From an uncultured beta proteobacterium (GTDB taxonomy: Bacteria; Pseudomonadota; Gammaproteobacteria; Burkholderiales; Burkholderiaceae_C): a stretch of DNA of 64,000 nt. The notes beneath the pieces were generated by a model. That model saw only the letters and a list, made by a program, of their open reading frames with translations. It did not search any database and was not told the DNA's origin. The position numbers were made by a program, and so were the translations under genes. Positions 3,885-64,000 of the stretch are shown here, piece by piece. The stretch covers positions 173,196 to 237,195 of the forward strand of contig CAWKLQ010000011.1 of assembly GCA_963850525.1 (NCBI GenBank), given 5' to 3'. The stretch's first letter is position 1. The number at the start of each line of letters is the position of its first letter.

Positions 3885-5558
3885 TCAGTTGGTCCGCACC
3901 TTGACTTTGGCGTGCTCGTTGATTCCCATCGCGCCGAAGAACAGCGCCACCAGGCGGTGCGCCTCGAGGAAACACACGCTGCGGCTCTCGGTGCGGCGCG
4001 TCAGCACCCAGTTCAGCAGGTCGCCTGCGGCGATGAAATCGACGCGGATCAGCTTCGAGCACGTCACGTTCACGAGCGCGGCGCTCTTGATGTCGTCGTC
4101 GAGTTTCTTCAAGGTCGGCGCAATGTCGCCGACCAACTGGCCCGACAACTCGACCGCAGCGACTTGCACCGACGCCTGGTCTTCGAGGGTCTGCGACTCG
4201 ACGAAACTCGTCGACACCTCGCCGATCACCGACATCGAGGGCTGCGTGGCGAGCAAGTTCGAGCCGCGGATCTGCGCCACGCACAGGGCGCGCTCCCAGG
4301 AGGGCGGCGAGACCTCGTAGGTGACGCAATAGTCGATCGCGACCTCGTCGAACTGGTCGGGGCGGTTCGCGATGCGCAGCGCGTCCAGGCGGACCCGCCA
4401 ATAGGCCGGGTCGGCGTCGCGCACGCCGGTGGGGGTGGCCTCTTGCAAGACGCTGAACAGGCGTTCGCCGTTGAGCCAGTGCATGTCGAGCTTCTGCCCG
4501 ATCCACTTGCGGAACAGTTCGCTCAAGCGCGCGCAGCCTTCGGCGTCGACGCTCTTCAATTCGCTCCACTCGAACACCCAGGGCAGCGGCATCTGCAGCG
4601 TCTGCGACGCCAACTTCGCGACGGCGTCGGCGTCGACCACGGCCGGGCACACCCAACCGATCTGCCCCGCCACCCGGCTGCCGGCGGGTTCATCCGACAC
4701 CGATTCGGCAACCATCTTGGGCATCGAGAACCACTGCGGCGACGACCAGCCGAACTGCTGCGCGTAGTCCATCGCCAGGCTTTCGAACTTGTGCTGCTGG
4801 CCGGTCGCGCGGTACAGGTCGAACAGGACCAGCCAGGTCTCGGCGTTTTGTTCGCGCGCGCCGCCCTGGCCGACGAGGGCGCCGAGCGCGTTTTCGCACT
4901 GTTCGAAATCGGCGTTGGCAAACGCGATGACGGCCTCGTCCAAGTCCGGGTCGTGCGTCACCTCGCTGGCTTCGGCGGCGAAGGGCTTGGCCATCGCCGC
5001 CGTGCCGACGTTGACGTTGAGCGACTGGCCGGCCTGCGCCCTCTCCGGTGCTGCCACCGGTTCCGGCGCAGGTCTCGCGGCGCTGCTGCGCGCCGCGGCT
5101 GCAGGGGCGGGTGCGCGCGCTGCGGCCGGCGCCGCGGCGGGAGCGCGCGCGGGCGTGCTGAAGTAGTCGTTGGAGCGGCGCGGCGAGCCGGAGTAACCGT
5201 CGCCCACCATTTGCTGTTCGATCTGGTCGATCTTCGCCTTGACGCCGCTGTCGGGCTTGGCGCCGTCGGAGGCGCGCACTTCCGAATCGTCGTTGCGCGA
5301 ATTTCCCGCCAGCGCGGCGAGCTGGTCGCCCGTGAGGCCTTCGCGACGCACCTGGCGCAGCATGTCGAGCTCGCGTTTGCGCACGAAGTCGTTGCGCCGT
5401 TTGCGCTCGATCATCGACTTCAATTCAGACTTGGCGGTCTCCGCCTCGCGCGCCAAATCGCTGCGCGAAGCCAGGTCAGTCCACTCCGTGCCCGGATTGG
5501 CGACGAACTTCACCATCTTGCGAAAAAAACTCGGGCCGTCTTTGGGTTGTTCCGCCAT
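3885..5558 (-). CDS. Hypothetical protein with an internal two-module duplication and STAS-like C-terminal segments
   Basis: High GC3. There is a conserved-looking N-terminus (FFRKMVKFVANPGTEW), an Ala/Pro-rich linker, then two similar modules. The start was taken at ATG 5558; a TTG at 5591 is also possible. Confidence 0.65.
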   Translation of the reverse strand: MAEQPKDGPSFFRKMVKFVANPGTEWTDLASRSDLAREAETAKSELKSMIERKRRNDFVRKRELDMLRQVRREGLTGDQLAALAGNSRNDDSEVRASDGAKPDSGVKAKIDQIEQQMVGDGYSGSPRRSNDYFSTPARAPAAAPAAARAPAPAAAARSSAARPAPEPVAAPERAQAGQSLNVNVGTAAMAKPFAAEASEVTHDPDLDEAVIAFANADFEQCENALGALVGQGGAREQNAETWLVLFDLYRATGQQHKFESLAMDYAQQFGWSSPQWFSMPKMVAESVSDEPAGSRVAGQIGWVCPAVVDADAVAKLASQTLQMPLPWVFEWSELKSVDAEGCARLSELFRKWIGQKLDMHWLNGERLFSVLQEATPTGVRDADPAYWRVRLDALRIANRPDQFDEVAIDYCVTYEVSPPSWERALCVAQIRGSNLLATQPSMSVIGEVSTSFVESQTLEDQASVQVAAVELSGQLVGDIAPTLKKLDDDIKSAALVNVTCSKLIRVDFIAAGDLLNWVLTRRTESRSVCFLEAHRLVALFFGAMGINEHAKVKVRTN

Positions 5559-18769: not shown

Positions 18770-19062
18770 TGCCCGCACGTGGGGCGTATCCACATTCCGT
18801 TGAGCCGGAACTGCCAGCCGAGCCCGCCAAGCCGGTCCGTCGAGTCAAGCCTTCGCCCCAAGGCGCTTGACCTCACCGCTGCGCGTCAGCGAAAAGAATG
18901 CGGGTGGCGCGACAGCGCTGGCCTGCCGCAAGATTGCAGCGTGGCAGCGGACCACGATGTCGCCCGTTTCCGCGCCGTCAAGCCACCCTGCGTGAACACG
19001 AATACGTGCAGGCGGGCGCTTCGCATTGCGGCCAGTTCATTCGCCTTGTAGCGAATGCGCTG

Positions 19063-19745
19063 GTAAGCGGACAGCCAACCCATCTTGAACTCACGCGCTG
19101 AAACGCGTACAGCTGTATGAAGGTTTCGGCGCGAGCGTTCAACGACGCCCGACGTTGCGTTGTGACGCGCAGTCCCGCGGGCCGACGTCGGTTCAGTTGC
19201 CGGTGGCAGGCATCCAGCGATGCGGCAACAACTCCCCGATGCGACTGTCCGGCTGCGTGGGCAAGCGCTCAAGCACGTCGCGCAGGTACGCGTAGGGATC
19301 GTGTCCGTTGAGCCGCGCCGAGTGCACCAGGCTCATCACGGCTGCGGCGCGTTGACCCGCGCGCAGTGAGCCGGCGAACAGCCCGTTCGATCGCCCGATG
19401 GCAATCGGCCTGATTTGGTTCTCCACCCAATTGTTGTCCGCCGGCAGTGCGCCGTCATCCAGGTAACGCGTCAACGCGCTCCAGCGCGCCAGGCTGTAGT
19501 CGATCGCCTTGGCGGTTGCGGTGCCGTCGGGGACTCTCTGTCGTTGCGCCGTGAGCCAGGCGTGCAAGGTGTCGGCCACCGGCCTGGCTTTGAGTTGGCG
19601 AATCCGTCGTCGCTCCTCTAGGTCGAGTTCCTTCACCTCGCGCTCGACTTCATACAGCTGGATGAAGAATTTCAGCGCCTGTTCGCCGATTTTGAACCGG
19701 TCCCCGTTCATTGGACGCCACGAAGCACGATGAGCGTTATCCACG
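19063..19745 (-). mobile_element. IS66-family insertion sequence remnant (3' end only)
   Basis: Holds the C-terminal third of an IS66 TnpC-type transposase. A terminal GTAAGCGG at 19063 fits the GTAA start of IS66-family inverted repeats, 127 nt past the transposase stop. The inner boundary is approximate. No tnpA/tnpB and no other end were found. Confidence 0.7.
19193..19744 (-). pseudogene. Truncated IS66-family transposase (C-terminal ~175 aa)
   Basis: LARWSALTRYLDDGALPADNNWVENQIRPIAIGRSNGLFAGS...LNGHDPYAYLRDVLERLP matches the conserved IS66 transposase C-terminus. The DDE catalytic core is missing. Confidence 0.8.
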
Positions 19746-57789: not shown

Positions 57790-58575
57790 TCAGCCCGCCA
57801 CCAAGGCCAGCACGCGCAACGGGCTGCCGCTGCCCTGCTGAATCTTCAGCGGCGGGCAAATCAGCAGGCTGCCCGTCGCCGGCAGCAAGTCGAGGTTGGT
57901 CAAGCACTGCAAGCCGTAGCGCCCCGCGCCGTGCATGTAGTAGTGGCAGGGGTAAGGCGGGCGCAGGTGGTAGCCCTGACCGGCGTCGGTACCGATCGCC
58001 TCCGAGCCGAAACCGAGCACACCACGCTGTTCGACGAGGAACTGCACGGCTTCGCTGCTCGGCCCGGGCGTGTGTTGGCCCGTCTCATCGAAGTTCTGGT
58101 ACGCCTCGGGATCCTGGCGCTTGCTCCAGTCGGTGCGCATCAGCAACCAGTGGCCTGCCGGGATGCGCCCGTGCGCGGCTTCGAAGGCTTCGATGTCGGC
58201 CACCGTCAGCAGGTAGTCGGGGTCTCGCAGCGCCTGTTCATGGCAGTCGATCACGCACGCCGGAGCGACGAAGTGCTGCGCCGGAATCGTGTCCACTGCA
58301 TTGTTCGGCAAGTTCCGACCGGAAATCCAGTGGATGGGCGCGTCGAAGTGCGTCCCCGTGTGCTCGCCGCAGGAAAAATTGTTCCAGTACCAGCCCGGGC
58401 CACGCTCGTCGTAGCGCGACACTTCTTCGATGCGAAACGGCCAGCATTGGCCCATCTCGGGCGGCAGCGCGATTTGCGGGAACTCGGGCGTGAGCGTCTG
58501 CGTCAGGTCGATGACACGAATCCCGCCGGAACCGAGCGCGCCGGCGAGTGCCGCGAGGAGTTGGGTGGGGTTCAT
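57790..58575 (-). CDS. Cyclase-family protein (kynurenine-formamidase-like fold)
   Basis: FSCGEHTGTHFDAPIHW carries the metal-binding signature of the putative cyclase family. Confidence 0.8.
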   Translation of the reverse strand: MNPTQLLAALAGALGSGGIRVIDLTQTLTPEFPQIALPPEMGQCWPFRIEEVSRYDERGPGWYWNNFSCGEHTGTHFDAPIHWISGRNLPNNAVDTIPAQHFVAPACVIDCHEQALRDPDYLLTVADIEAFEAAHGRIPAGHWLLMRTDWSKRQDPEAYQNFDETGQHTPGPSSEAVQFLVEQRGVLGFGSEAIGTDAGQGYHLRPPYPCHYYMHGAGRYGLQCLTNLDLLPATGSLLICPPLKIQQGSGSPLRVLALVAG

Positions 58576-58595
58576 GGACTGACCGCCGGCAGTAG

Positions 58596-58615
58596 ACCCC
58601 GGCTTTCGCCGGGGT
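58596..58615 (-). terminator. 8-bp GC hairpin (ACCCCGGC-GAAA-GCCGGGGT on the minus strand) between the DUF35-SDR and cyclase genes
   Basis: Seen directly. No U-tract, so it may be an attenuator or RNA-stability element rather than a terminator. Confidence 0.3.
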
Positions 58616-58656
58616 GACGGCCCTCAGCCTGAGATATGACGAGTTGAATCATGCGC

Positions 58657-59937
58657 TCATCCTCCTGCCGCCAACTCGCGCTCGAGCACCTTCGGGTTCT
58701 CGCGCCAGCGCTCCAGCCACTCTTGCGCCACGTCGCCGGGGTACACGTCTTCTACGCCGTCGCGCAGCGCCTTGATCACCGCACTCGCGAGCGCCTCTGG
58801 CGTGAGCTTGGGTGGCGGCATGTTCTGGTTCCACTCGTCGTCGACCGGCCCCGGAAACACGTTGATCACGCGGATCCCCGCAGTGCGCATCTCGGCGCGC
58901 TGGCATTGCGCGAGCGAGTGCGCCGCCGCCTTGCTCGCGCTGTACGTGCCGTGCGGCGGGAAGTTCGCGAGCGCGTAGATCGACAGCAGGTTCACCCACG
59001 CGGTGGCGTGCGTCGCGCCGTCGGCGGCGCGGCCCATGAGCGCGGGGCCGAATTCCTGCGCCAAGCGCAGCGCGCCGAAGTAATTGACGTCCATCTCGGC
59101 GCGCGCCGCATCGGTGCCGCGCCTTGCGGAAATTCCGAAGGTGCGGTGCACTTCGGCGTTGTTGATGACGATGTCGACCTTGCCGCCGATCTCGCCCGCG
59201 AGCTCGCTGACCGAGCGCGCATTCGTCAGGTCCAGCGGCACGAGGCTCACCTGCGGCAAGACGGTGATGTCGTCGAGGCCGCTGCCGTGGCGCTTCCATG
59301 GTTCGGCGTGGCCGGCCCAGACGATGTCGGCGCCGGCCTGAATGAGCGCCCGCACGAGCGCCTGGCCCACGCCCGTCATCGCGTCGGTGACGAGGATCTT
59401 GCGCAGCTTCGGGTCGCTCGTCATTTCGCGCAGCATCTTGTCATCATTCATGTGCGGGGTCTCCGTAGCGGGAAATGCGATGACGACGGCGCGGCCGGCG
59501 CGGTCCAGGCGCGCGCCGACTTTCACGCGCACGCCGGGCTTGCCTACAACGTCGTGCGCGCTTGAGGCCTGCACGTCGCCGTGCAGATGGACCATCAGCG
59601 TCGGCCCGGCGTCCAGGCGCACGAGGCCCAGGCGCCACGGCAGGCGTTCGCGAAAGAACAAGTCGTTGCTGTGATGCAGCGTCGTCACCGCGAGCAACTC
59701 GCCGGCGCCGCTTTGCGCGCGCCACTTCAGGCGCGGCGAGACGCACGCGCTGCACGCTTCGCGCGGCGGGTACTGAACCGTGGCGCAGTCTTCGCACACT
59801 TGCAGCTCGAAGCGCCCCTCGGCAGCAGCCGCGGTGAGGCCCAGCGCAATCCGGCTGCGGCCCCACGGCGGCAAGTTCATCTGCGGCGTGCGCCGCACCG
59901 GGTTCTTGCGCTTGGGGCGCATCAGCGGCATGGTCAT
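58657..59937 (-). CDS. Fusion protein: N-terminal DUF35 (Zn-ribbon + OB-fold) domain plus C-terminal SDR dehydrogenase domain
   Basis: CEDC...CSAC zinc ribbon and an OB segment (residues ~40-160), then ILVTDAMTGVGQAL, NNAE and YSASKAA (YxxxK). One uninterrupted 426-aa frame. GGAGA RBS. Confidence 0.75.
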   Translation of the reverse strand: MTMPLMRPKRKNPVRRTPQMNLPPWGRSRIALGLTAAAAEGRFELQVCEDCATVQYPPREACSACVSPRLKWRAQSGAGELLAVTTLHHSNDLFFRERLPWRLGLVRLDAGPTLMVHLHGDVQASSAHDVVGKPGVRVKVGARLDRAGRAVVIAFPATETPHMNDDKMLREMTSDPKLRKILVTDAMTGVGQALVRALIQAGADIVWAGHAEPWKRHGSGLDDITVLPQVSLVPLDLTNARSVSELAGEIGGKVDIVINNAEVHRTFGISARRGTDAARAEMDVNYFGALRLAQEFGPALMGRAADGATHATAWVNLLSIYALANFPPHGTYSASKAAAHSLAQCQRAEMRTAGIRVINVFPGPVDDEWNQNMPPPKLTPEALASAVIKALRDGVEDVYPGDVAQEWLERWRENPKVLERELAAGG

Positions 59938-59965
59938 GACGCTGTCTCCGAATCCGTCGGCAGCG

Positions 59966-61162
59966 TCATGATGGTCGCCCCAGAATCACCGCACCCGTGC
60001 ACAGGCAACGGTCGTAAGTGACCATGCCAAAGCCGCTCACCAGGCCGAGCTGCGCGTCTTTCACGGCGTGCCCCGGCGCGGCGTCGGTGAGCTGACGGAT
60101 CGCTTCCGTCATGCCGATGAAGCCCCCCGCCGCACCCGCCTGGCCGCACGAGAGTTGCCCGCCCGACGTGTTGTTCGGAAAGTCGCCGTCGAAGGTCAAA
60201 CGGTGCGCGCGAACGAACGCCGGGCCCTCGCCCTTGGCGCAGAAACCGAGGTCTTCGAACTGCATCATGACGATCACAGGATAGTCGTCGTAGGTCTGGA
60301 CGAAATTCATGTCGGCGGGCTTGGCATCGGCCATCGCGTAAAGCTCCGGCAAGTCAAGCTGCCAGCCGCCGCGCACCATGATCGGGTCTTGCGCAAAGGC
60401 GTTGTGGCGCTCGATCGCGCCGCGCAGCGTCGCGTAGCGAAGCCCCAGATCGCGCGCGCGCTCTTCGCTCATCACGAGAAAGGCCTCGGCGCCGGCGCAT
60501 GGCATGACGCAGTCGAAGAGGTGGATGGGCTCGGCGATCGGCCGCGCGCCCAGGTACTCGTCCATTCCGAGCGGCTTCTTGAAGACGCGTGAGCCCGACG
60601 GGCTTGCCAATCCCGGCAAACCCGCGAGCGCATTCGCGCGCTGATCGACGCAGATCCGGCCGAAGTCCTCGCGCGTCGCGCCGTACTGGCGCATGTAGTT
60701 CGCCGTGATGAACGCAAAGATCGCGTTCGGCCCGCCCGAGCCGTACGGATACGTCGCGTCGCGCGCAAAGCCGCTGAACGACCCCAACATCAGGCGAAAC
60801 GAATCGACGTGGTTCGTGTCCGCGGCCACACACGCGACCACACTCGCGTCACCCGCCTGCACCGCACGCGCCGCACGCCGCAGCGCCATCACACCGGAGG
60901 CGCCGCCATTGGGCAGGTGGTCGAGCCAGCGAGGGCTCAAGCCCAGATGCTGCGTCACACCGACTGCGGTGTCAGGGTTCAGCGAAAAGCTGCTCACCGT
61001 GAGGCCATCGATGTCGCTCTTGGCGATGCCGCTTTGCTTGACAAGCGCCTGGACCGCTTGGCCAAGGAACCACATCGCACCGCGCGTCGAATAGCGCACG
61101 TAGGGCACCGTCACCGGCACGGCGACGGCCACCTCCTCGTAGCCTTTGCGCACCGACGTCAT
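59966..61162 (-). CDS. Thiolase-like protein (SCP-x/lipid-transfer Ltp-type, non-canonical thiolase)
   Basis: 398 aa with thiolase-fold blocks (GASGVMALRRAARAVQAG, CVMPCAGAEAF, NTSGGQLSCGQAGAAGG). GGAG RBS before ATG 61162. The upstream 203-codon open extension was rejected. Confidence 0.8.
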   Translation of the reverse strand: MTSVRKGYEEVAVAVPVTVPYVRYSTRGAMWFLGQAVQALVKQSGIAKSDIDGLTVSSFSLNPDTAVGVTQHLGLSPRWLDHLPNGGASGVMALRRAARAVQAGDASVVACVAADTNHVDSFRLMLGSFSGFARDATYPYGSGGPNAIFAFITANYMRQYGATREDFGRICVDQRANALAGLPGLASPSGSRVFKKPLGMDEYLGARPIAEPIHLFDCVMPCAGAEAFLVMSEERARDLGLRYATLRGAIERHNAFAQDPIMVRGGWQLDLPELYAMADAKPADMNFVQTYDDYPVIVMMQFEDLGFCAKGEGPAFVRAHRLTFDGDFPNNTSGGQLSCGQAGAAGGFIGMTEAIRQLTDAAPGHAVKDAQLGLVSGFGMVTYDRCLCTGAVILGRPS

Positions 61163-61195
61163 GTCGGTTGCTCCATTGCACTTCTCGCGCTTGGC

Positions 61196-61712
61196 GATGC
61201 ATCGGCGCCCAGGGGCGGCGGCTTGCGGCCCTTTGCTGCCGTTCGTCGCGAGCTTCCTGCGACGGTTGCGACGCCAGGGCGGCGGCGGTGCCCCCGTGCT
61301 CCGGCCCACGCTCGCGGGGCACCGTCCAGAAGTGCAAAGCAAAGCCGCGTCAACACGGGACTTACGCTGCATCGGTTGGCAGACACCGCGAATGGGTCCT
61401 GCGCCCGGGGGCACCACCACCGCCCTGCTGCACACACCGGTGGCATGCAGAGCCTTCGCATGCCACCCGAGTGCCGGGGTAGGTGGCTTGGGGTACGGGC
61501 GCAGGCCCCCATTCGCGGTGTGATCAACCTGCACCCGAGAACACCTCGTTGATGGCGCAACGCCAGCGGGCCCAATACGGTGCCCCGCGAGCGTGGGGCC
61601 GGAGAACGTACCCCAGGCCACCTGCCCTTTCTCGACCTCTGCACGCAGGTCGCGCCGAACGGCAGCAACGGGCCGAATGCCGACCTCCCCTCGTGACCCG
61701 GTGCCAGACGTT
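61196..61712. repeat. Long imperfect palindrome (inverted duplication, ~2 x 255 bp) centred on a perfect 8-bp stem / 9-nt loop hairpin at 61441-61465
   Basis: Arms align collinearly by eye. Near-identical blocks: 61222-61250 vs 61651-61679 (25/29); 61299-61325 vs 61577-61604 (27 matches, one 1-nt indel); 61383-61407 vs 61496-61521 (24 matches, 1 mismatch, 1 indel). Outer boundaries are approximate. Confidence 0.8.
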
Positions 61713-61806
61713 TCATGCCGGAAGCCGGCCAGCCTTGAGTCGAATCCGCGCTGAGGCGAATCGCGAGCCAAGGAGGCAGCGAACCCATGAGCTGAAGGGC
61801 CTCACG

Positions 61807-63444
61807 TCAGAGCTGCCGCTTTTTCATCGCGCGAGTATCGATGCAGTGCGCCTGCCCCGGCAGCGCGAGCGCCATTGCCTTCAACTCGCCCCGCTGGACT
61901 TTCTGCGACGGCGTGAGCGGCAGTGCGTCGACGAAGGCGACAAACCCGGGCGCCTTGTAGTAGGCAAGGCGCTCCAGCGCGTGCGCAACGATGCGGTGTG
62001 CGAGCTGCTCGCGTTCCCCCGACGCAACGGGCTCGTGCGTCACGATGCACGCCAGCACCTCGTCGCCACGCAACTCGTCGGGTGTGGCCGCCACCGCGCA
62101 GGCCTTCACTTCGGGCAACTGGCTCAGGACGCTTTCCACTTCTACAGCGGAGATGTTTTCGCCGCTGCGGCGGATCACGTTCTTGCGCCGGTCGATGAAG
62201 TGCAGCAGACCTTCGGAATCGCGATTGACGATGTCGCCGGTGTGGAACCAGCCGCCCTGCCAGGCTTCATCGGTCGCCTGAGCATCTTTCAGGTAACCCG
62301 CGAAGAAGCCGTAACGTGGGTCGGCGCCGACGCGCTTGACGAGCAACTCGCCGGGCTGGCCCACGCCGGCCTCATTGCCATCGTCACCGACGACGCGCAC
62401 CAAAACGTCCTCACTCTCGCGGCCAAAACAACTCGTTCCCACGGATCGCGGCTCGGCGTTGGCCATGATCACCGCACCCGCGCCGGTTTCCGTCATCGCC
62501 CAACCCTCGAGCAGCGGGAAGCCGAAACGCGCTTCGAAGGGTGCGTGCAAGGCCTTGTCGACGCCGGCGCCGAAGCCGAAACGAACCGCGTGGCGCGCAT
62601 CGTCGATGCTCGCCGGAGCCTTCATCAACATCGACGGCATCACGCCGAGGTAGTGCACGATCGTCGCGCGCGATTCGCGAACCGTGTTCCACCAGCTGCC
62701 GGGGTGGAAGCGATCCAGCACCATCAGGCAACTGCCGCTCTGCACACAAGCCAATGTCGAAAACGCCATCGCGTTCATGTGCGCCACGGGCAGCGGCGTG
62801 ACCATGCGCTCCTGACCGGGCCGCAAGTCGCAAAGCCCGCCCACGCTCAGGTACCAGCGCCCCGCGTGCAGGAAGTAGCGGTTCTGCAAGATGCAGCCCT
62901 TGGGTCGGCCCGTCGTTCCCGAGGTGTAGAGCAGCGCGCATTCACTCAGCTCGTTGGGAGGCGCGTGGCCATCGGGCGCGGCGCTCGGCGCAGGTGGAGG
63001 AACCTCGCCGTCCGCGATCACCGCGAGGCGCCTGCCGACGGCCGCAGCGGCAGCTCGCAAGCCGGCATGGCGCTGCGGCACCGCGACCGCGAGCGCGATC
63101 TCGGAGTGGCCCACCAGGTACTCCAGCTCGGCTGAGCGCAGGTCGGCGCTGATCGGAACGACGGACACGCCCAGCCCGTTCAGAGCGAACCAGTGCAGAA
63201 AGAACGCCGGCCGGTTGTCGAGCAACAAGCCGACGCGGTGCCCGCCGCCATAACCCGCACGTGCATAGGCTTCACGCAAGGCGAGGATGCTGCGCTGCGC
63301 CTGCGCGTAGCTCAAGGCACCCGCGGCAATTCCATAAGCCACGGCAGTCTCGGGCAGGACCTCAAAAAACGGCGGATCCGCCCAGCGCGCTGCGGCTTCT
63401 TCGAATGCGCCAGCGACCGTGGCGGAAGAAGAAGGCATGCCCAC
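61807..63444 (-). CDS. AMP-dependent synthetase/ligase (acyl/aryl-CoA ligase)
   Basis: LLYTSGTTGRPKG (AMP-binding motif I), WFHTGD, and the C-terminal KVQR-type lysine region. GTG 63444 or ATG 63438. Confidence 0.9.
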   Translation of the reverse strand: MGMPSSSATVAGAFEEAAARWADPPFFEVLPETAVAYGIAAGALSYAQAQRSILALREAYARAGYGGGHRVGLLLDNRPAFFLHWFALNGLGVSVVPISADLRSAELEYLVGHSEIALAVAVPQRHAGLRAAAAAVGRRLAVIADGEVPPPAPSAAPDGHAPPNELSECALLYTSGTTGRPKGCILQNRYFLHAGRWYLSVGGLCDLRPGQERMVTPLPVAHMNAMAFSTLACVQSGSCLMVLDRFHPGSWWNTVRESRATIVHYLGVMPSMLMKAPASIDDARHAVRFGFGAGVDKALHAPFEARFGFPLLEGWAMTETGAGAVIMANAEPRSVGTSCFGRESEDVLVRVVGDDGNEAGVGQPGELLVKRVGADPRYGFFAGYLKDAQATDEAWQGGWFHTGDIVNRDSEGLLHFIDRRKNVIRRSGENISAVEVESVLSQLPEVKACAVAATPDELRGDEVLACIVTHEPVASGEREQLAHRIVAHALERLAYYKAPGFVAFVDALPLTPSQKVQRGELKAMALALPGQAHCIDTRAMKKRQL

Positions 63445-63449
63445 GTGCC

Positions 63450-63923
63450 CTACATGAACAACTGCATGCTGCCGAACGCAGCGTCGCAGTTCACGAGGTC
63501 GACGCGCTTCTGCTTGATGCGCAATGCCCCGTCCTGACTCACCAGCGTGTGCGTCGCCCAGCCGGCGTAAAGCGTCTGTTCGTCCAGGCGCGTTTCGACA
63601 TAGTGGAACGCGGTGCGCGTGGTGTAGACGCCCGCCGCATCGTCGCGCGCCTCGACGCTCGGCTGCTGCAGCAAGTGGTGGCAGCGGCTGCGCGGCTGCT
63701 GCGAGAACGTTCTCGCGCCGTGCAGGCGCTCGACGCGGATTTTCAGCAGCAGCTTGTCTTCATACATCAACGAGGCGTGCAGTTTGGCGTCGGTCTGGCC
63801 GTGCGCGAGCGGCATCCAGTACACGCCGTCTTCAGCGAACAGGTTCAGCCAGTCGTCGAAACGCAGTTCGTCGAGCAGGCGCGCTTCGGCGACGACGAAG
63901 TCAATGAGTTGCTGGTTTGTCAT
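63450..63923 (-). CDS. Aromatic-ring-hydroxylating dioxygenase beta subunit (SnoaL-like fold)
   Basis: EARLLDELRFDDWLNLFAEDGVYWMP...LMYEDKLLLKIRVERL matches the Ring_hydroxyl_B pattern. ATG 63923 has an AAGGG RBS; the ORF track start at 63950 is also possible. Confidence 0.75.
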   Translation of the reverse strand: MTNQQLIDFVVAEARLLDELRFDDWLNLFAEDGVYWMPLAHGQTDAKLHASLMYEDKLLLKIRVERLHGARTFSQQPRSRCHHLLQQPSVEARDDAAGVYTTRTAFHYVETRLDEQTLYAGWATHTLVSQDGALRIKQKRVDLVNCDAAFGSMQLFM

Positions 63924-64000
63924 GCTTGCGACCCTTTTTACCTCTGTCATCCGGGCGCAAGCCGGGATGCTTCGCCAGCCGCAGCGCTGGGTGCATGCAG

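Follow-up and report, generated by a model that had tools for sequence, protein, structure and literature searches.

A 644-bp spacer in a catabolic operon of an uncultured Burkholderiales bacterium is probably a copy of a dispersed mosaic palindromic repeat

Introduction

Invertons are well known from the polysaccharide promoters of B. fragilis that are flipped by Mpi, from fimS and from the Hin/hix system. The element described here resembles them in that segments with a conserved inverted repeat of ~20-27 bp are found at multiple loci, and in both orientations upstream of genes. It differs from them in that we found neither a sigma-70-like promoter nor a linked or recognisable invertase, the interior is palindromic, and the two orientations are distributed between species.

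The second group of comparable sequences comprises the REP dimers, REPINs and BIMEs, which have been reviewed in detail (PMC3333891, PMC2817692, PMC3733652). The units of a REP heterodimer fold either separately or together as one large stem-loop (PMC3733652). As in these repeats, the present element is extragenic, has a high copy number, contains two related but non-identical palindromic units in inverted arrangement, and is built up from modules as a mosaic, in which the linkers vary and some variants carry deletions. In contrast, its units are ~150 nt long compared to the 20-40 nt of the REP units, the whole element spans 0.45-0.65 kb, and it contains an extra bounding inverted repeat (block A) as well as a leader module with a Shine-Dalgarno sequence. 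We recognised no GTAG or CGTC tag in the element by eye.

The third comparison is with miniature elements. In Correia elements, the hairpin in the mRNA has been described as an RNase III substrate or as a barrier to 3'-exonucleases (PMC2649163). The spacer shares with MITEs a non-coding sequence (644 nt) with no transposase ORF inside, terminal or subterminal inverted repeats in the form of block A and the long complementary arms, and dozens of intergenic copies per family with presence or absence at orthologous sites. Co-transcription with the flanking genes, which is likely here, is a further likeness to MITEs and to CREE, the latter supplying regulatory signals and RNase III substrates. The element is, however, larger than most bacterial MITEs, no cognate IS was found among the neighbours of its copies, and its core is unusually conserved across genera and repeatedly flipped relative to asymmetric outer modules.

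From these comparisons, we conclude that the spacer is probably a copy of a dispersed, non-coding family of mosaic palindromic repeats that is both MITE-like and REP-dimer/BIME-like. Only the recurrent inversion of the core and the portable leader set the family apart from ordinary MITE/BIME-like repeats. The main value of the analysis is a correction, since what appeared to be a unique structured RNA or switch in a catabolic operon is in all likelihood a repeat insertion.

Results and discussion

A palindromic spacer between a ligase and a thiolase gene

The spacer lies within an operon at positions 57790-63950 of the window, i.e. the whole 64-kb stretch of DNA that was analysed. Together with the upstream genes present in the related loci L001-L006, the gene order is Rieske dioxygenase alpha and beta subunits, CoA ligase, SCP-x-type thiolase, a ChsH2-like OB-fold protein fused to an SDR, a cyclase and an SDR. 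This operon appears to resemble the ipfABDEF-type clusters for the CoA-dependent degradation of arylacetic acids (ibuprofen). In L003 (2590-3749), the gene of the Rieske alpha subunit is split into two overlapping calls of 243 aa and 155 aa, which may reflect a frameshift or a pseudogene.

The ORFs of the AMP-dependent ligase and the thiolase-like protein are both on the minus strand and are separated by 644 bp (61163-61806). The ORF positions confirm the gap that the preliminary description had placed between the ligase stop at 61807 and the thiolase start at 61162. Rough gene calling left further gaps elsewhere in the window, which probably contain genes. The region contains the following features.

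59966-61162, minus strand: thiolase-like gene (Pfam Thiolase_C_1)
61163-61806, minus strand: whole spacer, probably a complete copy of the mosaic repeat, the outer modules of which follow the direction of the operon, ligase to thiolase
61163-61225, minus strand: gene-proximal 'D' leader module, assigned from the nhmmer D-flank model and from its position at gene starts across the family
61212-61271 / 61630-61689: arms of the block A region, 60 nt, 75% (repeat finder)
61226-61245, plus strand: block A, the left one of the two inverted repeats around the core (CGGCCCnTTGCTGnCGTTCG)
61275-61427: left hairpin unit (X...X'), inverted repeat I2, holding block B (61305-61325) and block C (61383-61396)
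61305-61325 / 61577-61597: arms of block B, 21 nt, 100% complementary (repeat finder)
61383-61396 / 61508-61521: arms of block C, 14 nt, 100% complementary (repeat finder)
61433-61473: central hairpin, -21.8 kcal/mol when folded alone
61433-61448 / 61458-61473: arms of the central hairpin, inverted repeat I10
61477-61627: right hairpin unit (Y...Y'), inverted repeat I3, holding C' (61508-61521) and B' (61577-61597)
61656-61675, minus strand: block A', right copy of the bounding inverted repeat
61676-61806, minus strand: ligase-proximal outer module (U-like), including CGTTTCATGC at 61698-61707
61802-61810, minus strand: 9-mer CTGACGTGA over the ligase stop codon, a direct repeat (7/9) of CCGACATGA at 61159-61167 over the thiolase start
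61807-63444, minus strand: AMP-dependent ligase gene

The element therefore consists of an outer module, a 20-27-nt inverted repeat (block A), the left unit, the central hairpin, the right unit, block A' and a second outer module, in this order. The imperfect palindrome reported earlier at 61196-61712 was recovered by the repeat finder, and both shuffling and folding place it well above chance. Local alignment of one arm with the other gave a score of 92 with 94 matches over 109 positions, compared to 21 +/- 3 (maximum 34) in 200 shuffles, and the z-score of RNA folding against shuffles was -6.9 (minus strand) and -8.1 (plus strand). Within the central hairpin, there is a perfect 8-bp stem (61441-61448 with 61458-61465). 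The preliminary description overlooked that each arm of the palindrome is a hairpin itself, in which 61275-61307 pairs with 61395-61427 on the left and 61477-61509 pairs with 61595-61627 on the right (33 nt and 82% each in the repeat finder). When folded alone, the left unit reaches -87.5 kcal/mol and the right unit -99.4 kcal/mol.

The element has no coding capacity. The ORFs that cross the spacer, earlier regarded as nonsense, indeed show no periodicity of GC over the codon positions and no Pfam match. In the 209-aa ORF of the spacer, the GC content at codon positions 1, 2 and 3 is 0.66, 0.71 and 0.69, compared to ~0.66, 0.49 and 0.84 in the flanking genes, and a Pfam search of the spacer-internal ORFs returned no match. 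We also considered a coding reading in which the ATG at the U end is in frame with a 'GPLLPF' version of block A, as is the case in ~12 copies; it was ruled out by the lack of GC3 periodicity, the different frames in the two arms and the lack of a Pfam match. The repeat stays open over long reading frames, which leads to calls that are spurious by composition (L004:5435-6004; 59966-61771 and 61159-61788 in the window). Two such cases are the 189-aa protein within the repeat in the public annotation of L004 and an ORF in the window with a TTG start, which would lengthen the thiolase N-terminally to 601 aa.

Homologous copies are dispersed among related genomes

An 18-mer from block B was used to scan a single genome of each species, and blastn was then run with the arms of the window copy. 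The scan gave more than 101 stretches among the matches listed, and blastn identified at least 75 homologues of the element, which are 350-470 nt long and have identities of 73-94%. Matches of the 18-mer in Actinomycetota and other phyla were dismissed as chance, with no element present there. The hosts are about ten Burkholderiales MAGs, relatives of Rubrivivax, Rhizobacter and Ideonella, and the best-sampled genomes hold at least 14-22 copies.

Burkholderiales MAG VAR_45_metabat_315: at least about 22 copies
MAG 2017_B01_C_4: at least about 16 copies
MAG MFD04651.bin.1.131: at least about 14 copies
Rhizobacter SOY_4_C_metabat_101: at least 8 copies
Burkholderiaceae SF1_2_8: at least 3 copies
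Ideonella and Rubrivivax MAGs: copies also present

As far as sampled, the family appears to be confined to an uncultured Burkholderiales clade near Rubrivivax, Rhizobacter and Ideonella. The window contains only one copy, and our search of its 64 kb agrees with the earlier statement that blocks B and C have no second copy there. Among the matches listed, the one closest to the window copy is L060 (93-94%), which is at a different locus and adjoins an unrelated Rossmann-fold gene. All copies are intergenic and lie in either orientation between tandem, convergent or divergent genes. The genes next to them have ordinary functions in transport, CoA metabolism and housekeeping, and transposases or recombinases are not enriched among them. 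The orientation is clear in every copy, and the two arms represent two distinct conserved types. Many copies are located at contig ends; the element breaks the short-read assemblies of these MAGs.

In an alignment of 33 copies, column conservation in the stems of the core (61275-61627) exceeds 90%, while the loops vary. Block A is conserved across the copies, is found on both sides of the core at a variable distance, and is extended by ~7 nt. The flanks outside block A are also conserved between loci and sort into types, and in the subfamily of the window the outermost modules are asymmetric (U versus D). The first ~30 nt of the U-like module past the ligase stop align directly with L003 and L004, and ends of the U type are present in other copies as well. 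Variants that are deleted for the interior of one hairpin unit persist in L056 and L096. This degree of core conservation across several genera exceeds that usual for selfish MITEs, and it could result from a host function, gene conversion or recent spread. Selection acting on the blocks, as inferred earlier, is plausible.

The preliminary description had linked dispersed copies to a MITE, and the presence of dozens of homologous copies in related genomes points to this outcome. Its wording of a decayed palindromic MITE was essentially right as far as the palindromic MITE is concerned, while the term decayed does not fit a family with a core conserved at more than 90%. At the gathering score, no Rfam family matched the window, and at E <= 10 the spacer gave only two chance-level matches, leaving no credible Rfam family. 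There was also no match of the spacer in PLSDB plasmids by blastn, no block B in the viral contigs scanned, no locus-specific 22-mer in the JGI metagenomes scanned, and no record in the exact-protein look-up of the window thiolase. The family seems to be undescribed in Rfam, the plasmid and viral collections and the literature searched.

Chimeric reads can yield inverted duplications, and in principle the palindrome could be an assembly artefact or a product of chance. We regard this as practically negligible, because the arms have diverged to an identity of about 75-86%, both arm types are found again in about 75 copies that were assembled independently, and the shuffle controls exclude a chance palindrome.

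The junction is empty in orthologous operons

We collected thiolase homologues with their encoding contigs and compared the ligase/thiolase junctions. In the orthologous operons of L001, L002, L006 and L007, the ligase stop overlaps the thiolase start by 1 nt (TGATG) and there is no spacer, so that the flanking genes are kept in relatives from which the spacer is absent. The junction of L003 is 122 nt long and resembles the outer ends of the element together with one block A-like sequence. In L004 (GCA_965190825.1), L005 and L019, the junction contains ~570 nt homologous to the window spacer. As far as sequence comparison can tell, this shows that the spacer was inserted at a junction where the stop and start codons of relatives overlap by 1 nt. 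An all-versus-all search with the flanks gave five more pairs of orthologous filled and empty sites (L025/L015, L023/L033, L033/L023, L096/L036 and L091/L055).

The 9-nt direct repeat at the borders of the window copy (CTGACGTGA/CCGACATGA) matches the native stop/start junction CTGACATG of L112 and may be a target-site duplication of the CTGACATGA stop/start junction. The direct repeats at the flanks vary, with 9 nt in the window (7/9), 6 nt in L023 (GGCTCA/GGCTCA) and 7 nt in L025 (AATGAAG/AATGAAAG). A target-site duplication of fixed length was set aside because of these differences in length (9, 6 and 7 nt).

At the same ligase/thiolase junction, L112 (551-632) has an unrelated palindromic insert of 69 nt within an 11-bp direct repeat, GAGCTGACATG, which duplicates the stop and start codons. 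Small palindromic elements seem to have landed at this junction more than once. In addition, L023 contains a 488-nt repeat (4037-4524) and the orthologous L033 an unrelated 64-nt palindromic insert (~560-850), and both are flanked by GG(C/T)TCA.

The core has two nearly isoenergetic predicted folds

The segment 61228-61682 is predicted to fold either into a rod-like hairpin of -274.3 kcal/mol or into a four-way junction of -267.6 kcal/mol, which consists of an outer stem and three hairpins. In single-stranded DNA or in the polycistronic mRNA, the element could form this ~230-bp rod or the nearly isoenergetic four-way junction. In an alignment of 36 copies (A2), the rod keeps its pairing in 80.1% of the cells and the cloverleaf in 77.3%, compared to ~35-42% in controls with slid partners. 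The Y:Y' helix is 95.7% paired, with changes on both sides at 6 pairs. Compensatory changes are found between the arms (A2 columns 222-227 / 375-380 and 267 / 334) and within the arm in Y:Y' (columns 334 / 474, 339 / 469 and 345 / 463), and as these counts come from copies related by descent they do not represent independent events. Covariation was consequently discarded as an arbiter between the rod and the cloverleaf, both of which are about equally supported by these non-independent copies. The internal loops of the rod are complementary within an arm and not between the arms (GGTGCCCCCG/CGGGGGCACC on the left and TGGGGTACG/CGTACCCCA on the right), and in the modelled fold this pattern is the strongest indication that the two hairpin units are important in their own right.

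The preliminary description had proposed, among other readings, a locus-specific structured RNA or 5' leader. This does not agree with the dozens of copies, the absence of the spacer from orthologous operons and the occurrence in either orientation. A more general version, in which a cis-acting structured RNA (a riboswitch-like leader or an element for processing or stability) is selected for its fold and has been recruited upstream of many genes, is in our view very unlikely. It would account for the strongly conserved stems with variable loops, the compensatory changes that keep the pairing, the very stable fold and an outer leader co-oriented with the downstream genes. However, no Rfam family was found even at E <= 10, and the core is present in both orientations relative to the downstream gene so that the transcribed strand differs between copies. 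The element is also dispensable in orthologous operons and is found between convergent genes, and the covariation, coming from related copies, supports two alternative folds equally.

Another earlier proposal, two convergent small-RNA genes that have the central hairpin as a common bidirectional terminator, is hardly credible. Two related hairpin units of ~150 nt are indeed placed on opposite strands around a GC-rich hairpin, but we found no sigma-70-like promoter sites inside the core and no T-run after the central hairpin. The only terminator-like site is located elsewhere, and such sites are no more frequent than in shuffles; a promoter or terminator reading of the spacer was rejected on these counts. 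Moreover, there is no Rfam match, the variants without the interior of one unit persist (L056 and L096), and copies are found in both orientations and between tandem, convergent or divergent genes alike.

If the spacer is a mobile repeat copy, as we prefer, its long hairpin in the mRNA could still serve, by analogy with Correia elements, as an RNase III target or a 3'-exonuclease barrier and uncouple the expression of the ligase and the thiolase.

The core is inverted relative to the outer modules

Comparison of the window with L004 gave 82% over 458 nt in inverted orientation and 67% in direct orientation. The ends of the two copies align directly, over the first ~30 nt that follow the ligase stop and the ~45 nt that lead up to the thiolase ATG. 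The core bounded by block A is oppositely oriented in the window and in L004/L019. We then oriented the copies by their outer U-to-D modules and compared the A-A' segments, which gave 0.83 flipped and 0.70 direct for the window and L004, 0.86 flipped and 0.72 direct for the second copy of L016 and L077, and again 0.86 flipped and 0.72 direct for L061 and L081. The flipped stretch is the whole segment from block A to block A', including the linkers outside block B. The idea of an invertible segment put forward in the preliminary description thus stands in that relatives have the core inverted with respect to its flanks, and fails in that the breakpoints lie at block A and not at block B.

When the cores were clustered, the two states were intermixed, and in each of three subfamilies the nearest neighbour of one state was the other state, indicating that inversion between the bounding repeats happened several times. 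As aligned here, either orientation of the core is found with respect to the outer modules. The inversions may have arisen through recombination between the inverted repeats. L008 and L069 are a candidate for a second orthologous flip, with 77% inverted versus 71.5% direct and a truncated L069. The closest relatives, L109, L110 and L111, break off inside the repeat; L109 extends only into block A, and L110 and L111 give ~0.77-0.78 with either arm.

We considered whether the copies form a genome-wide family of programmed invertons, in which a trans-acting site-specific recombinase flips the core between the block A repeats and the orientation sets downstream expression. We judge this unlikely. 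The invertible part is nearly palindromic, so that a flip changes little sequence, and it has no sigma-70-like promoter. The 25 most frequent Pfam families of the 55 window ORFs, and likewise those of the 84 ORFs neighbouring the copies, include no recombinase. Both orientations were observed between species only and never within one population, and some copies lie between convergent genes. The features in its favour are the conservation of block A as a 20-27-nt inverted repeat across copies, the leader module facing real gene starts, and the fact that the core takes both orientations relative to the leader in a single genome, in each subfamily and at the thiolase locus of orthologous operons; ordinary homologous recombination between the 250-nt inverted arms, however, would give the same pattern. 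A wider formulation is that the cores are multi-locus cassettes flipped by a dedicated trans-acting recombinase, or that the rod or four-way junction is a functional module, with the orientation tuning the processing or translation of the gene behind the attached Shine-Dalgarno leader. This too is improbable in our estimate, and if true it would mean that a genome-wide regulatory inversion system is hidden in the operon junctions of uncultured Burkholderiales.

Mobilisation

As a mosaic repeat of the kind favoured here, the element would spread as a non-autonomous mobile sequence that is mobilised in trans by some enzyme. We found no transposase or autonomous IS sharing the element ends among the neighbours of the copies or in the 64-kb window. 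A truncated IS66-family transposase (19196-19744, minus strand), 42 kb away from the spacer, is the only mobile-DNA gene there. It keeps the C-terminal third of DDE_Tnp_IS66 and the IS66_C domain, with an IR-like GGTAAGCG near 19062. IS66 was rejected as the parent element because its end has no similarity to the element ends.

A portable leader in front of unrelated genes

The D module contains a Shine-Dalgarno sequence, GGAG (ctcc on the plus strand, 61171-61174), located 8 nt ahead of the thiolase ATG (61160-61162), and the nhmmer D-flank model matches the window at 61204-61157 with E = 2.6e-7. In this flank, the GCGCGAAGCGCG mini-hairpin is followed by GGAG, ~7 nt and ATG, and the module stops exactly at the ATG. 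This ATG opens a long ORF with coding-like composition in ~19 of 22 distinct cases, and the encoded proteins are unrelated to each other. L051 is an exception, in which the neighbouring gene is convergent and the ATG opens no such ORF; this D end without a gene start implies that the ATG-proximal sequence is part of the repeat. The portable leader puts GGAG and the ATG-proximal sequence before unrelated genes, which would allow the element to sit in tightly coupled operons. In the operon of the window, the insert would separate ligase and thiolase genes that are otherwise translationally coupled, and it may be tolerated by restoring a ribosome-binding site for the thiolase gene after the overlap with the ligase gene was lost.

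Leaders of the D type are also found without the core, in L006 and L007 ahead of the next gene and in L034. In L006 (7180-7281) and L007 (2937-2996), the D-like leader (TTTCACGCGTCG...GGAGCCACTGACATG) precedes the OB-fold/SDR gene with no palindromic core, which indicates that the leader module is an independent short repeat as well. In L034 (5180-5345), four tandem units of ~28 nt (ACCGTGCGAAGCGCGGTGGACTCGCAC) with a GCGAAGC mini-hairpin lie directly upstream of GGAG and the gene ATG, and these units adjoin a copy of the repeat. In the related operon of L001 (7203-7430), the thiolase and OB-fold/SDR genes are separated by a 227-nt spacer with two copies of a different hairpin repeat (...aaagtggcaaagccacattt...), which represents a further repeat family.
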